The translations under genes were made by a program, and so were the position numbers. 44,278 bases of DNA from a virus: the UHGV virus genome UHGV-0261880; one strand, given 5' to 3'. Below, piece by piece: positions 2,394 to 41,984 of this stretch (the stretch's first letter is position 1; the number at the start of each line of letters is the position of its first letter). The notes under the pieces are model-generated. The model did not search any database, was not told the origin of the DNA, and saw only the letters and a list, made by a program, of their open reading frames with translations.

Positions 2394-2759
2394 TTATCGC
2401 CAAAATTCAATCTCCGTGTACGTGTCTCTGAGGTCCGCCAGCCTGTCAAGCCGTACCTGACGTGACGCAAGCTCGCAATGGCTGACCATCCCGTCGAAGT
2501 AGACTCCTGCGTGCCACACGATACGACCGCCACGGCGATACCCCATAAGCACCGCGCAGAAGTTTTCAGGCTTATCAATTTTCGTAAGCCCCTTCGTGTC
2601 CCGGCGGCCTTCGTCAAACGCTTCGTTAATCGCCGTTGGGCTTGTAACGTCGAACGCCGGTGTTTCTAACCCGGCATCCGCCCGCACAATTCGCACATGA
2701 TGCCAGCAATTGCGCTTGCGAAAGTCGTAAGGTATGCCCGTGTAGTCGTTAATGTTCAT
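2394..2759 (-). CDS. Tail assembly protein, NlpC/P60-type peptidase (lambda K-like)
   Basis: 121 aa; Cys in NCWHH and downstream His in WHAGVY resemble the NlpC/P60 Cys-His pair; position between minor tail proteins and J-like gene. Confidence 0.55.
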   Translation of the reverse strand: MNINDYTGIPYDFRKRNCWHHVRIVRADAGLETPAFDVTSPTAINEAFDEGRRDTKGLTKIDKPENFCAVLMGYRRGGRIVWHAGVYFDGMVSHCELASRQVRLDRLADLRDTYTEIEFWR

Positions 2760-3286
2760 GTGGTCAACAGGCCGCGTAATAACGGTATCTCTTTAGGTGT
2801 CATCAGTATACCAGTGCTTCGTTGGTGCAGCATAGGTGTACCAACATCTGCGGAGAACTCGCCTTTCTCCTGGTTGATAGCCTGCAACTCGTACACGACC
2901 GGGCCGTCAGCCGGATAAGACAGGTCGGTGCTGACGTAACGGCGGAAGACGAACTTAGGCAACTCAGTATTGCTCATCGGGATTTTATCCATCTCATCAT
3001 CCAGTTGATTGAGGATATCCGGTAAAGTAAACGTCGTAGTCTGGTCCATATCACTGTTGTTAGCCGCTCCCGACGCCTCCATCGGGGTTGGCTCGAATGT
3101 TATTGCTTCGCCCGTCTCCAGTGTTGCTGTAAGTTCCTGCAGCCCGCGAACAAGATAGTACGTCTTTGACAGCAACGGGTGGCTGATTTGCAACGTGATG
3201 TAGTCCATCTCGCCGTCGGGGTTTGAGGCCAGTTTACGGCGATAGGCGGCTTCTACTGATTCCTGGCTCATTGCATCGGGTCCCAA
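2756..3286 (-). CDS. Minor tail protein (L-like position)
   Basis: 176 aa ORF overlapping its neighbours by a few nt in the tail module downstream of the tape measure; call by synteny only. Confidence 0.45.
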   Translation of the reverse strand: MGPDAMSQESVEAAYRRKLASNPDGEMDYITLQISHPLLSKTYYLVRGLQELTATLETGEAITFEPTPMEASGAANNSDMDQTTTFTLPDILNQLDDEMDKIPMSNTELPKFVFRRYVSTDLSYPADGPVVYELQAINQEKGEFSADVGTPMLHQRSTGILMTPKEIPLLRGLLTT

Positions 3287-35246: not shown

Positions 35247-35275
35247 TTGACACCTGAATAGTTAGCTATTATAGT
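35247..35275 (+). promoter_or_regulatory. Sigma70-like promoter TTGACA-N17-TATAGT with embedded palindrome AATAG-ttag-CTATT
   Basis: Near-identical to the 32733 promoter; ~55 nt upstream of the 35331 start. Confidence 0.55.
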
Positions 35276-36013: not shown

Positions 36014-36292
36014 ATGGCAGCGGAACTTAAGAGATACAGACGCATCACATACTGCAAATTTTGTAAGGCAGAAGGTAAAAAAGTTAGAGCAATTTGGATG
36101 ACTAAATACCCTCCAGCTTACGGTGTACGAGACTGGTATAAACACTATGCATGCGAGGAGCATAAACATTTAATAGAAGACACAGACCCAGACCGGACTT
36201 GGGCAGAAATCATAGAACGCGGTAAAAACAAGAAACAAGATCGCGACGACCATCTCACAGAAGCAGACTATCAGACGTGGTACAGACTATGA
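36014..36292 (+). CDS. Small zinc-ribbon-like protein
   Basis: 92 aa; CKFCK...YACEEHKH; lower GC than the polymerase gene it overlaps. Confidence 0.45.
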   Translation: MAAELKRYRRITYCKFCKAEGKKVRAIWMTKYPPAYGVRDWYKHYACEEHKHLIEDTDPDRTWAEIIERGKNKKQDRDDHLTEADYQTWYRL

Positions 36293-38541
36293 ACACATTG
36301 CTTTACTTAGACTTTGAAACCTACAGCGACATCGGTTTGAAGAAAGTCGGTTCCTACGCTTACGCTGAACACCCGTCAACCGAAGTGCTTATCTGTACCT
36401 ATGCTTTTGACGAAGAGCCTGTGCAGGTATGGGATTGCACCGACGGCAGCGACATGCCAGGTGATTTACACCGCGCGCTACGCCGTCTGGTTAAACCGAA
36501 CAGCCGCATCAAGATGGTATGGCACAACGGCTCAATGTTCGATAGGTTAATCATGAAGCACTGCTGGGGTTTTGACATCCCGGTAAGCAACACCATTGAT
36601 ACGATGATTTGGGCGTTTCGCCACGCGCTGCCGGGTTCACTTGATGCATTGTGCGAAGTGCTGGGTGTATCTGCGGACAATGCAAAAGATAAACGCGGCA
36701 AGGCGCTGATTCAGCGTTTTTCTAAACCGACACCGAAGAACTACAAAATTCGCCGCTATACCGCCGAAACGCACCCGGACGAGTGGGCGCTGTTCATCAA
36801 GTACGCCGTCAGCGACATCACCGCAATGCGTGAAGTCTTCCATAAGCTACCACGTTGGGGTAACTCCGAGTTCGAGGACCGGGTACTGGAACTGGACCAG
36901 TTAATCAACGACCGAGGGTTTAAGGTTGACGTCGCACTGGCGGAAGCCGCGATTGAAGCCGTTGAGAAACACAAAGCGCAGTTACAGGAAGAAGCCCAAC
37001 GCAAATACGGCGGCTCGCTTACGGGTAAAGACTTTCTGCCAATTCTACGTGAACTGGCTCCTGCGCACCGCATCCACAACGCGCAGAAGTCTACGCTTAA
37101 CGACCTGTTGGCGGACGATGATTTACCGGACGACGCACGCACGATTATCGAAATGCGCCTCGGGGCCGCGTCCACAGCGTCAACGAAATATAACCCGCTA
37201 CTGTTGGGCCGCTCTTCTGACGACCGCCGTCGCGGTTGCATCCAGTATGGTGGCGCTAAGCGTACGTTACGGTTCGCAGGTAAAGGCTTCCAGCCACAGA
37301 ACCTGGCGCGCGGGTACTATCATGATGACCCGAAGAATAAAAAGAAGAAAGTACGTTATGACTGGATGTCAGAGAAGGACTGGTGGAGAGTAACACACCC
37401 ATTGTCCTACGGAATCGACCTGTTGTTTAAAGGCCGCGCGCATCGCCGTTTCGATGTAGCCAAGCTAACGGCATCGACGGTGCGTAGCTGCATCATACCG
37501 GAAGCCGGGCATAAGTTTGTCGTAGCTGATTACTCTAACGTTGAAGGTCGCGGGTTGGCATGGCTGGCGGGGGAAGAAACCGCTCTCGATACCTTCCGTG
37601 CGGGATTGGATATTTACTGTGTAACCGCGGGTAAGATGTTCGGCATGGACCCTGATTACATTCTCGAAAGCCGTAGTGACCTACGCCAGATAGGTAAAGC
37701 ATGTGAATTGGGCCTTGGCTACGCTGGTGGTGTCGGTGCTTTCGTTCAGTTTGCTAAGAACCTCGGCTTAAACCTGGTTGATATGGCTAAAACAATGGAC
37801 GGTACTTTCCCGGACCACATATGGGCGGCTACTGCACGGGGCTATGAGTGGGCGCGTATACAGGAGGCAAAGCGACCGCCGCGGCCTGGTGAAAAGGATG
37901 ATCGACCCTCGTATATTCTTGATAAGAAAGTGTGGCGTACCTGTGACGCTATCAAGCGTATGTGGCGAGAGTCACACCCTGAAACAGTAGCTTTCTGGCG
38001 AGATATTGAAGACGCAGCTATGGCGGCTATCCGCAATCCTGGCAAAGAGTTCACCGCTGGGCCGCGAGGCGTTAAGTTTTCGCGTAACGTAGAGACAGAC
38101 AACAACGGCAACAAAGTCGCCGGTTGGTGGTTGCGCATGACGCTGCCGTCGGGTCGTGTTATGTCTTACCCGGGCGTCGGATTAAGCGTGTCGAAAGAGA
38201 CAGACGAAGATGGAAAGGTGTCTACTAACGTACGCATCAAGTACCAGGGAGAAAACCAGTTAACCAGACAGTGGGGGTTCCAGTACACCTACTCCGGTAA
38301 ACTGGTGGAAAACTGTACTCAGGCGCTGTGCCGTGATTTGCTGGCTAATGCCCTACTGAACGTCGAAGCAAACGGCTACCCGATTGTACTTCATGTTCAC
38401 GATGAGATTATCTGCGAGACACCAGATTTACCGGAATACAATGTTGCAGAGCTAGAGCGATTGATGTGCGAATTACCGGAATGGGCTGAGGGATTCCCTC
38501 TTGTAGCGGAAGGTGCGGAGATGAAGCGTTATGCCAAGTAA
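36277..38541 (+). CDS. DNA polymerase, family A, with 3'-5' exonuclease domain
   Basis: 754 aa; exo motif LYLDFETYS; polymerase motif A VVADYSNVEGRGLAWLAGE and motif C LHVHDEIICE. Confidence 0.9.
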   Translation: MVQTMNTLLYLDFETYSDIGLKKVGSYAYAEHPSTEVLICTYAFDEEPVQVWDCTDGSDMPGDLHRALRRLVKPNSRIKMVWHNGSMFDRLIMKHCWGFDIPVSNTIDTMIWAFRHALPGSLDALCEVLGVSADNAKDKRGKALIQRFSKPTPKNYKIRRYTAETHPDEWALFIKYAVSDITAMREVFHKLPRWGNSEFEDRVLELDQLINDRGFKVDVALAEAAIEAVEKHKAQLQEEAQRKYGGSLTGKDFLPILRELAPAHRIHNAQKSTLNDLLADDDLPDDARTIIEMRLGAASTASTKYNPLLLGRSSDDRRRGCIQYGGAKRTLRFAGKGFQPQNLARGYYHDDPKNKKKKVRYDWMSEKDWWRVTHPLSYGIDLLFKGRAHRRFDVAKLTASTVRSCIIPEAGHKFVVADYSNVEGRGLAWLAGEETALDTFRAGLDIYCVTAGKMFGMDPDYILESRSDLRQIGKACELGLGYAGGVGAFVQFAKNLGLNLVDMAKTMDGTFPDHIWAATARGYEWARIQEAKRPPRPGEKDDRPSYILDKKVWRTCDAIKRMWRESHPETVAFWRDIEDAAMAAIRNPGKEFTAGPRGVKFSRNVETDNNGNKVAGWWLRMTLPSGRVMSYPGVGLSVSKETDEDGKVSTNVRIKYQGENQLTRQWGFQYTYSGKLVENCTQALCRDLLANALLNVEANGYPIVLHVHDEIICETPDLPEYNVAELERLMCELPEWAEGFPLVAEGAEMKRYAK

Positions 38542-38662
38542 ACTGATTATCGCGGTACTGGCGGGATTTGCCGCTGGGGTCTACTGTCACGAGGGGCAAT
38601 ATGGCATGATTGTCGCTGTATTGGGTATGTTCATCGCAATTTATCTGTGGGTGCTGGAATGA
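38531..38662 (+). CDS. Tiny membrane protein (43 aa), below cutoff
   Basis: ATG overlaps the polymerase stop; MPSKLIIAVLAGFAAGVYCHEGQYGMIVAVLGMFIAIYLWVLE. Confidence 0.35.
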   Translation: MPSKLIIAVLAGFAAGVYCHEGQYGMIVAVLGMFIAIYLWVLE

Positions 38663-38748
38663 AAATTTACTGGTTCTATGAAGAAGACTGCCGAATCTGT
38701 CCGCGCTGCGGGATTGAACATACGAGACGGGAGGGGTGCGTGTTATGA
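38659..38748 (+). CDS. Tiny CxxC...C zinc-ribbon peptide (29 aa), below cutoff
   Basis: ATGA overlap with both neighbours; MKIYWFYEEDCRICPRCGIEHTRREGCVL. Confidence 0.3.
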   Translation: MKIYWFYEEDCRICPRCGIEHTRREGCVL

Positions 38749-38897
38749 CAATGTTTGTATTTTGGATGATAGTAACCATGCTTGCACTGCTACTCGGTGC
38801 GGGAATAGCTGCGATGTTCTGTTATGGTCTGTTATTTAAGTTTGTTGGCGTTGCCGTTCTAGGCGGGGCTTTCCTTACCTGGATTCTGCGGTCATGA
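38745..38897 (+). CDS. Tiny membrane protein (50 aa), below cutoff
   Basis: ATGA overlap with both neighbours; MTMFVFWMIVTMLALLLGAGIAAMFCYGLLFKFVGVAVLGGAFLTWILRS. Confidence 0.35.
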   Translation: MTMFVFWMIVTMLALLLGAGIAAMFCYGLLFKFVGVAVLGGAFLTWILRS

Positions 38898-39196
38898 CCC
38901 CGGAAGGCAAGATTCAGAAATACTCAAAAGAGCGATTCGAGGCCCTGGGCGGCCTCGTACGCAAATTGTCGTACGAAAATAGAGTGGGCGCTCCTGACCT
39001 GCTGGTAATCCTCCCCGGCGGCATCGTATGGTTCGTTGAGGTTAAGAAAGACGAAAACACGAAGCCAGACCCGCACCAGTTACGGGAGCACGATAGGATG
39101 CGTAAACGTGGCGCGAATGTTTTTGTCGTCGGTTCGTTCAAACAGGTTGACGACCTAATAGCGAACTATTATAGTAGCCATACACCAACAATATAA
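38894..39196 (+). CDS. VRR-NUC domain nuclease (PD-(D/E)XK)
   Basis: 100 aa; GAPDLLVILPGGIVWFVEVKKDE gives the D...EVK catalytic pattern. Confidence 0.65.
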   Translation: MTPEGKIQKYSKERFEALGGLVRKLSYENRVGAPDLLVILPGGIVWFVEVKKDENTKPDPHQLREHDRMRKRGANVFVVGSFKQVDDLIANYYSSHTPTI

Positions 39197-39207: not shown

Positions 39208-39399
39208 ATGAAACACGAATATGACCGCAAACCAGCACGTGACATCGTACCAGGCGACATGATTTTCAACGTTAAAACCCGACAGCCGGTTGCCGTTGAT
39301 ACGGTGTACGTCGAGTCGAACGGTAAACTGGTTATCGAAGACGTAACTGGAAACGTTACGGCGTTCGGGCGTAAAGAGTTAGTTCTGGTGCTGAAATGA
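39208..39399 (+). CDS. Hypothetical protein
   Basis: 63 aa ORF between VRR-NUC and HNH genes. Confidence 0.4.
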   Translation: MKHEYDRKPARDIVPGDMIFNVKTRQPVAVDTVYVESNGKLVIEDVTGNVTAFGRKELVLVLK

Positions 39400-39893
39400 G
39401 TAAATTCAATAGAAGACCCGATATTGAGGAGGCGAAACGTCTTCTTAACTATGACCCCGAAACAGGTATATTTACACGAAAAGTAAGCATAAAAGGGAGA
39501 AATGCTGGGGAGGTAGCCGGAGGGCCAAACGACAAAGGATGCATAGTTATTACAGTCTCCGGTGTAAGAATAAAAGCCCACCATCTGGCATGGGCTTTCG
39601 TCTACGGGGAATATCACAATGGTGAGCTTGACCATAAAGACCGTAACAGGGCCAATAACGCCATAAATAATATAAGGCCCGCAACAAGGAGCCAGCAGAT
39701 TCAGAACCGCGACTGCACCTCGCATAACACCAGCGGCGCGATAGGGGTTTACCAAATACCATCGGGCAGGTGGCGCGCCAGAATAGGCGTCAATAACAGA
39801 TACATCCACCTTGGCTATTTTGACACTATAGAAGAAGCGTCGCGCGTATACCAAAGAGCCGCAGAAATATACTTCGGGGAGTTCAAGGCATGA
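39396..39893 (+). CDS. HNH homing endonuclease with AP2-type domain (second copy of this architecture)
   Basis: 165 aa; KAHHLAWAFVYGEY...DHKDRNRANN; C-terminal IGVYQIPSGRWRARIGVNNRYIHLGYFDTIEEASRVYQRAA is AP2-like. Confidence 0.75.
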   Translation: MSKFNRRPDIEEAKRLLNYDPETGIFTRKVSIKGRNAGEVAGGPNDKGCIVITVSGVRIKAHHLAWAFVYGEYHNGELDHKDRNRANNAINNIRPATRSQQIQNRDCTSHNTSGAIGVYQIPSGRWRARIGVNNRYIHLGYFDTIEEASRVYQRAAEIYFGEFKA

Positions 39894-41964: not shown

Positions 41965-41984
41965 AAGGCCCCTAAAGGGGCCTT
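41965..41984. terminator. Terminator hairpin AAGGCCCC-TAAA-GGGGCCTT + AGTTTTATTT between convergent genes
   Basis: 8-bp GC stem; U-tract on plus strand; same stem sequence as hairpins at 9582, 10111 and 17251. Confidence 0.55.

Follow-up and report, generated by a model that had tools for sequence, protein, structure and literature searches.

Between the genes for a family A DNA polymerase and a VRR-NUC nuclease, the virus genome UHGV-0261880 (a stretch of 44,278 nucleotides [nt], referred to below as the window) has a short interval, which raises the question of whether it contains genes and what their products might do. A preliminary description of this DNA had proposed that three open reading frames (ORFs) of 43, 29 and 50 codons on the same strand link the two genes, and both the coordinates (Table 1) and the relatives agree with this layout: the gap is tiled by ORFs A, B and C, all on the plus strand. 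The window represents a Kagunavirus-type siphophage of the subfamily Guernseyvirinae, and its nearest GenBank records are approximately 90% identical to it. We consider it likely that A, B and C are genuine micro-genes in a cassette slot, translated as a relay, with B encoding a metal knuckle and A and C encoding accessory membrane peptides.

Conservation of the three reading frames

With the VRR-NUC protein as an anchor, 53 related loci were collected from IMG/VR, and several GenBank records were added. Across this wider set of relatives, the ratio of nonsynonymous to synonymous change (pN/pS) in the proposed frames is 0.24 for A, 0.17 for B and 0.21 for C, compared with 0.18 for the polymerase C-terminus and 0.25 for VRR-NUC, whereas the values of the two other forward frames lie between 0.86 and 2.1. 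When every segment was compared over one set of 17 genomes that have the A-B-C arrangement, overlap codons left out, the values are 0.24, 0.09 and 0.23, respectively (polymerase end, 0.29; VRR-NUC, 0.19). The preliminary description had suggested a bias towards synonymous substitutions as a check on the chain and had made its reality depend on conservation of the reading frames in relatives. The bias is present, and the frames, lengths and start/stop overlaps of A, B and C are kept across dozens of relatives, with junction offsets of −11, −4 and −4 in 14 of the 16 chains classed automatically as A-B-C. We regard the combination of frame conservation and in-frame purifying selection as decisive: the substitution pattern identifies A, B and C as protein-coding, with purifying selection acting in precisely the proposed frames. 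Among 5,000 dinucleotide-preserving shuffles, 17 (0.34%) yielded ATG ORFs with overlapping starts chained over at least 360 nt, which is unlikely but not decisive; a looser test, in which three open frames had to cover the gap and start codons were not required, was passed by 44% of the shuffles.

Other readings of the interval were rejected. An antisense ORF of 123 amino acids (aa; 38408-38779, minus strand) is broken in 11 of 17 relatives, has a pN/pS of 1.36 and is not conserved, and an off-frame ORF of 53 aa (38678-38839, plus strand) is cut short or freely variable in relatives, the pN/pS of its frame exceeding 0.85. An ORF track based on length would prefer these two non-conserved ORFs, which exceed or come close to a 60-aa cut-off, over the micro-genes. 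For a structured RNA or riboswitch, there is no Rfam match in the window and the predicted fold is no better than that of shuffled sequence (z = 0.24); for a prophage origin, there is no match in 5,426 complete Escherichia coli genomes.

Prior annotation and database searches

All three peptides have counterparts in PHROG, namely phrog_10404 for A (E value, 3e-31; residues 1-43), phrog_38225 for B (3.2e-21; residues 1-28) and phrog_14925 for C (3.4e-32; residues 1-50), which are catalogued without an assigned function. Escherichia phage vB_EcoS_fTaEco01 (MT711527; fTaEco01 below) annotates all of them as hypothetical proteins, TE1_037 (A), TE1_036 (B) and TE1_035 (C). A, B and C are not new, being hypothetical genes already catalogued. 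The expectation that default annotation would miss them is overstated: A and C are listed as hypothetical proteins in many other GenBank relatives, whereas B is often skipped and is left without annotation in many records, including that of the Jerseyvirus type species. The chain itself is ordinary in such genomes, because short coding sequences (CDSs) and 4-nt overlaps are routine in fTaEco01, where approximately 21 of the 73 CDSs fall below 61 aa in length and the 4-nt overlap is the usual junction.

In a collection of 5.8 billion proteins, the homologs of A and C are all approximately 80% identical or more, frameshifted and truncated fragments apart, and where they lie on long contigs, these are phage-sized (40-45 kb). 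When 1.84 billion representative proteins were searched exhaustively with HMMER, a 33-aa in-frame extension of B retrieved no homolog outside its own clade; the sole non-clade match, P0174, is a low-complexity repeat artefact. Searches of the peptides against Pfam, NCBIfam, PADLOC and PDB sequences returned nothing significant, and no PDB sequence matched B with an E value below 0.2. A transcriptomics paper on Kagunavirus K1B4, in which 57 genes are annotated, has nothing on A, B or C. CRISPRi-ART fitness data for phage PTXU04 were set aside, this being an unrelated phage (92 CDSs, including a polyvalent protein of 2,198 aa).

A cassette slot between the polymerase and nuclease genes

Among 52 loci, the polymerase-to-VRR-NUC interval varies from 90 to approximately 1,125 nt, with gap lengths of 90, 205, 236, 280, 352, 394, 543 and 700-1125 nt, and the same architectures (Table 1) are found beside quite different polymerase C-termini, indicating mosaic exchange. 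By tblastn, B was found in approximately 445 GenBank records, all of Guernseyvirinae; A is present in 224 GenBank phage records (about half of the relatives) and C in 121 (about a quarter). On these comparisons, the junction is a lineage-specific cassette slot with modular content, of which B, and neither A nor C, represents the near-universal core. One distant relative, L051, has a noncoding gap of 68 nt and none of the three ORFs.

In Jerseyvirus jersey, the type species, an "intergenic" gap of 86 nt corresponds to an A'B ORF. The deletion of the body of A in Jerseyviruses maps to a microhomology of 7-8 nt (TGATTAT) between codons 5-7 of A and the start of the Jerseyvirus-type B, leaving B in frame behind the start codon of A, where it would be translated from the initiation site of A.

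Several other occupants of the slot were observed. Protein D (63-64 aa; MSNKPFSKKLAALVDMPEWEF...CAGCTHKG...) follows B, with or instead of C, in 8 loci (L007, L009, L022, L023, L030, L032, L036 and L043; positions ~2660-3004) and shows a sub-threshold resemblance to the A2L zinc ribbon (E value, 0.005). Unrelated hydrophobic mini-ORFs of 23-25 aa (e.g., MITIIAVLVALLLGAAIFSRIIG) take the place of C at positions 2930-3001 of L008 and 2924-3001 of L017 and L050, with the same ATGA junctions. In L048, a truncated, decayed remnant of a slot HNH gene (MCIMKAPSADIKDFLSYGPDTGVFKWV...; positions 2861-2992) separates B from VRR-NUC, showing that this junction has been invaded and that the invader has decayed. 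The window itself carries, two genes downstream of VRR-NUC, a gene for a 165-aa homing endonuclease with HNH_3 and AP2 domains (39396-39893, plus strand), the product of which is 35% identical (E value, 2e-24) to the HNH protein encoded directly after B in L046 and L047, suggesting that homing endonucleases move around this operon. Intein-containing polymerase genes annotated in Jerseyviruses LP31 (OL436139) and YMFM0293 (OK357457) are another sign of selfish-element traffic.

Fusion proteins joining A to B (72-73 aa) or B to C (68-79 aa) were also found (P0165, P0168-P0170, P0172, P0012, P0059 and P0090), in raw-read and metagenome assemblies. They result from single-nucleotide frameshifts or short deletions and can form since the frame of each downstream gene stays open ahead of its own ATG. 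As they may be sequencing indels or real variants, we did not take them as evidence of functional linkage.

A conserved Cys/His core in ORF B

Across 51 loci, the residues of B that are invariant or nearly so are Y4, E8, E9, D10, R12-I13-C14-P15-R16-C17-G18 and T22-K23-R24-E25-G26-C27. C14 and C27 are invariant, C17 is present in 50 and H21 in 49 of the 51 loci, and 4 loci have R or F in place of C11. The conserved spacing, CX2CX3HX5C, comprises a single CPxCG knuckle with H21 and C27 after it; the likely ligand set of the predicted metal site is C14, C17, H21 and C27. Selection on the peptide is not confined to its end, with residues 2-22 alone having a pN/pS of 0.09 in the 17 genomes. The preliminary description had classed B as a zinc ribbon of the CxxC...C type. 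B is indeed Cys-rich, but a classical zinc ribbon has two CxxC knuckles and four Cys, whereas B has a single knuckle, one of its Cys (C11) is replaceable and no zinc-ribbon Pfam model matches it. B departs equally from the CX2CX4HX4C pattern and profile of CCHC zinc knuckles, with no zf-CCHC match at E values up to 1; the best Pfam zinc-finger model reaches an E value of 0.22, which is not significant. Thus, B may work like a zinc knuckle, closer to the CCHC knuckle than to the zinc ribbon, while being a detectable member of neither. In two loci (L020 and L025; positions ~2897-2998), the ATG of B is replaced by GTG (ggaGTGaaaatt) and the stop context of A is altered accordingly, the coding sequence of B being otherwise intact.

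Hydrophobic peptides encoded by ORFs A and C

A and C had been described as single-helix membrane peptides. Their strong hydrophobicity (grand average of hydropathicity, 1.40 and 1.83, respectively) agrees with a membrane location, and AlphaFold2 models C as one helix of 48 residues (residues 2-49; predicted local distance difference test score [pLDDT], 87). By contrast, A is modelled as two helices (residues 2-19 and 22-42; pLDDT, 78), and the hydropathy profiles contain two hydrophobic segments in each peptide. The most favourable predicted insertion is at residues 24-42 of A and 1-21 of C, with negative 19-residue Hessa-type sums. With predicted hydrophobic helices of bilayer length, both peptides may be regarded as small integral membrane proteins; GxxxG-like small-residue motifs are visible in both, and they end in ...WVLE (A) and ...WILRS (C). 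Synonymous divergence in the same 17 genomes is 0.24 for A and 0.27 for C, compared with 0.55 for the polymerase end, 0.39 for B and 0.37 for VRR-NUC, and the low values for A and C fit recent horizontal spread. We propose that A and C would be small helical peptides of the inner membrane, dispensable and exchangeable, with the host envelope or competing phages as their probable targets.

The preliminary description had offered membrane anchors or toxins as possible roles. The most plausible of the rival explanations, although still unlikely, is that A and/or C are membrane-active toxins or lysis-timing peptides that would depolarise or permeabilise the host inner membrane, as type I toxins, holins or viroporins do. 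In their length of 43-50 aa, their extreme hydrophobicity and their small-xxx-small motifs, the two peptides resemble membrane-damaging peptides. However, neither has a Pfam, NCBIfam or PADLOC match to a toxin or holin family, including type I toxins such as Hok, TisB, Ldr and Ibs, and the window offers neither a conserved antisense gene nor an RNA family match that could represent an antisense regulator. Furthermore, A and C sit in the replication operon rather than in a lysis cassette and lack the charged C-terminal tail typical of holins, whereas an annotated relative carries class I and class II holin-like genes, an endolysin gene and a spanin gene in a separate cassette and an Imm_superinfect gene elsewhere. 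A and C themselves have no match to the Imm_superinfect Pfam family, to which superinfection immunity of the T4 Imm type would correspond.

Next in plausibility, and in our view improbable, is the possibility that A and C are replisome membrane anchors which tether the polymerase or recombination machinery to the inner membrane. Such a role would suit hydrophobic helices with GxxxG-like motifs encoded inside a replication operon, but A is absent from approximately half and C from approximately three quarters of the relatives with the same polymerase and VRR-NUC, the C position can carry an unrelated hydrophobic peptide of 23-25 aa, a soluble 64-aa protein or an HNH gene, and neither peptide has a soluble domain for binding DNA or the polymerase. 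Because most relatives lack them, A and C are unlikely to be replisome components. Collectively, the patchy distribution, the replaceable C position and the location of the holin, endolysin, spanin and Imm-type genes elsewhere disfavour both core replisome-anchor and lysis roles.

Proposed translation of the slot

The preliminary description had each ATG of the chain overlapping the previous stop codon. This holds for B, C and VRR-NUC, each of which starts in an exact ATGA overlap, so that the A/B, B/C and C/VRR-NUC junctions have the start/stop arrangement of a translationally coupled operon. It does not hold for A, the ATG of which lies 8 nt upstream of the polymerase stop codon (TAA, 38539-38541), the last 11 nt of the polymerase gene overlapping A. 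Duplex energies with the anti-Shine-Dalgarno sequence are −6.6 kcal/mol for A, −3.7 for B, −10.8 for C and −3.1 for VRR-NUC, against a background mean of −2.05. The Shine-Dalgarno (SD) site for the gene after B includes GAGGGG (codons E25-G26 of B), which is nearly invariant even at synonymous positions and always lies 7-9 nt before the next ATG, be it that of C, D, a mini-peptide, HNH or VRR-NUC. The strong duplex energy and the conservation of GAGGGG ahead of every follower gene suggest that the 3' end of B also serves to load ribosomes onto the slot. For B and VRR-NUC, translation plausibly relies on reinitiation after termination at the ATGA junctions. A consensus scan detected neither a strong promoter nor a terminator within 38531-38897.

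In the mechanism that we propose, A, B and C would share a transcript with the polymerase gene, and a translational relay would run from the polymerase through A, B and C to VRR-NUC. Ribosomes would initiate A at a moderate SD site overlapping the end of the polymerase gene, whereas B, with its weak SD site, would be reinitiated at the ATGA junction. The strong GAGGGG site in the last codons of B would then load ribosomes onto the occupant of the slot, which is C in this window, and VRR-NUC, with a weak SD site of its own, would be reinitiated at the final ATGA, tying nuclease output to upstream translation. The product of B would most likely be a soluble metal-binding knuckle peptide, with a core function probably tied to the replication/recombination module.

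A relay of this kind might be all that the ORFs provide, A, B and C merely carrying ribosomes from the polymerase gene to VRR-NUC, as leader or spacer ORFs do, and encoding functionless peptides. This explanation, third in plausibility, accommodates the weak SD sites and ATGA junctions of B and VRR-NUC, the SD site that the 3' end of B carries for the next gene in every architecture, and the apparent rule that ingroup genomes always translate something up to the VRR-NUC start. We nevertheless hold it to be improbable: purifying selection on the peptides is as strong as or stronger than on the flanking enzymes, residues 2-22 of B are highly constrained, whereas amino acid changes of any kind should be tolerated in a pure relay, and in L051 VRR-NUC follows the noncoding gap with no relay at all. 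Last in the order is the very remote chance that the ORFs are accidental or are decayed remnants of mobile elements left by homing-endonuclease traffic, which HNH genes and one decayed remnant at this junction in some relatives, together with the 0.34% of shuffles giving a chain this long, might suggest, but which the substitution pattern refutes as far as sequence analysis goes, with frames, lengths and overlaps kept over dozens of genomes, pN/pS far below 1, no similarity of the peptides to HNH proteins and B retained in hundreds of records.

Several points weigh against the favoured reading of A, B and C as relay-translated micro-genes for a metal knuckle and two accessory membrane peptides. 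A literature search found no functional data for A, B or C, whether on expression, translation, metal binding, localisation or phenotype. Single IMG/VR sequences carry C17Y, H21Y or H21Q in B, which points to a ligand set that is not strict or to sequence errors. Conservation of B at R24-G26 is confounded by the embedded SD site, although the constraint on residues 2-22, which are clear of it, indicates selection beyond this confounding. The AlphaFold2 models of A and C were built on shallow alignments (at least 80% identity) and say little beyond "helical". The low synonymous divergence of A and C might instead reflect constraint at the nucleotide level, and the patchy distribution of these ORFs is the sole basis for regarding their function as probably accessory. 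Finally, junction geometry and SD energies are the only grounds on which translational coupling is predicted.

More speculatively, B may be a clade-universal, 29-residue metal-knuckle subunit or regulator of the polymerase or of the VRR-NUC resolvase, its gene providing a "docking port" (a strong SD site plus ATGA) for swapped mini-genes. This is a tentative proposal; if true, B would be among the smallest known replisome or resolvase cofactors.

Neighbouring features

The coordinates of the locus and the content of the slot among relatives are given in Table 1. The polymerase matches Pfam DNA_pol_A (E value, 6.9e-15) and a 3'-5' exonuclease model and is annotated as DNA polymerase in relatives; the Pfam VRR_NUC match of the nuclease is below the family cut-off. 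The GTG start listed for the polymerase has essentially no SD site (−1.9 kcal/mol) and lies in a 16-nt overlap with an upstream 92-aa gene (36277-36292, plus strand), and an in-frame ATG four codons further on (MNTLLYL...) may be the real start. A second sigma-70-like match (39147-39175, plus strand; TTGACG, 17-nt spacer, TATAGT; 10 of 12 positions) is located inside the 3' end of VRR-NUC, ahead of a 63-aa gene at 39208, and may begin a second transcription unit extending to a strong terminator-like hairpin at 41965-41984.

Table 1. Features of the polymerase/VRR-NUC locus in the window and content of the corresponding interval in related loci
Feature	Coordinates	Strand	Gap (nt)	Loci	Remarks
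Best sigma-70-like match	35247..35275	+			TTGACA, 17-nt spacer, TATAGT; 11/12 positions in consensus scan; candidate promoter for the polymerase/A/B/C/VRR-NUC unit
Family A DNA polymerase gene	36277..38541	+			754 aa from the listed GTG start; from the ORF list
GGAG, SD-like site	38517..38520	+			10 nt upstream of the ATG of A
ORF A	38531..38662	+			43 aa, ATG 38531 to TGA 38662; hydrophobic, two predicted helices
A/B ATGA overlap	38659..38662	+
ORF B	38659..38748	+			29 aa, ATG 38659 to TGA 38748; Cys/His-rich microprotein; MKIYWFYEEDCRICPRCGIEHTRREGCVL
GGGAGGGG, strong SD site for the gene after B	38729..38736	+			Within codons R24-E25-G26 of B
B/C ATGA overlap	38745..38748	+
ORF C	38745..38897	+			50 aa, ATG 38745 to TGA 38897; very hydrophobic helical peptide
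C/VRR-NUC ATGA overlap	38894..38897	+
VRR-NUC / Holliday-junction-resolvase-like nuclease gene	38894..39196	+			100 aa, ATG 38894; phrog_93 (E value, 5e-33), phrog_5702 (5e-20)
Slot content A'B			~90	5	First 7 codons of A fused in frame to B
Slot content A-B			205	11
Slot content A'B-C			236	2
Slot content A-B + unrelated peptide			274-280	3	Hydrophobic peptide of 23-25 aa
Slot content A-B-C			352	17-18	Type found in the window
Slot content A-B-D			394	3	D, 64-aa Cys-containing protein
Slot content A-B-D-C			543	5
HNH homing-endonuclease genes or decayed remnant			larger	5	Before A or after B

Implications

The layout given in the preliminary description is confirmed, and its interpretation is supported in part. 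The new points are modest, comprising the near-universality and frequent non-annotation of B, its CCHC-like core, the docking-port 3' end and the cassette nature of the junction. Given that the proteins are known hypothetical ones and the chains are routine, the overall view of these genomes is unchanged. Nonetheless, B is strongly constrained yet unannotated in many Guernseyvirinae records, and the annotation of therapy-relevant phages is therefore systematically incomplete at this position. Kagunavirus phages already serve as synthetic-biology chassis (BASEL expansion preprint). The polymerase/VRR-NUC slot, with its conserved ribosome-loading site, could be a safe place for payload insertion in Kagunavirus.

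Comparison with known systems

The closest counterparts of the window's A, B and C are the three PHROG families and the fTaEco01 genes TE1_037, TE1_036 and TE1_035, which share order, lengths, overlaps and flanking genes and match over their full length; there is no material difference, the window copies being variants that are roughly 90-100% identical. The phi29 proteins p16.7 and p1 are small membrane-associated replication proteins and set a precedent for membrane tethering. Like them, A and C are small predicted membrane proteins encoded among replication genes, but they contain no soluble domain, and most relatives with these replication genes lack them.

Among small phage zinc-finger regulators, Mu Com (62 aa) is an RNA-binding translational activator, and P2 Ogr and P4 Delta (~72 aa) are transcription activators. 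B resembles them in being a very small Cys-rich phage protein, which by analogy makes a regulatory role in binding nucleic acid or protein plausible; however, no sequence similarity was detected between B and these proteins, and B, with less than half their length, is encoded in a replication operon rather than in a locus for late-gene control. The CCHC zinc knuckle is of the retroviral nucleocapsid type, and CPxCG is the knuckle of zinc ribbons. B, itself a very short peptide, likewise has a CPRCG with a His and then a Cys after it, and its weak, non-significant resemblances to PDB entries all involve CPxCG knuckle contexts (COX5B, Nop10 and RNA polymerase subunit M), whereas its spacing, the lack of a second CxxC knuckle and of a significant Pfam model set it apart, and its metal binding is a prediction. 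Finally, the chain resembles the ATGA gene chains of compact phage operons in its 4-nt start/stop overlaps and in the weak SD sites of reinitiated genes. Where it differs from ordinary ATGA chains, assuming that the predicted coupling takes place, is in the 3' end of B, which holds a conserved strong SD site serving an exchangeable slot.

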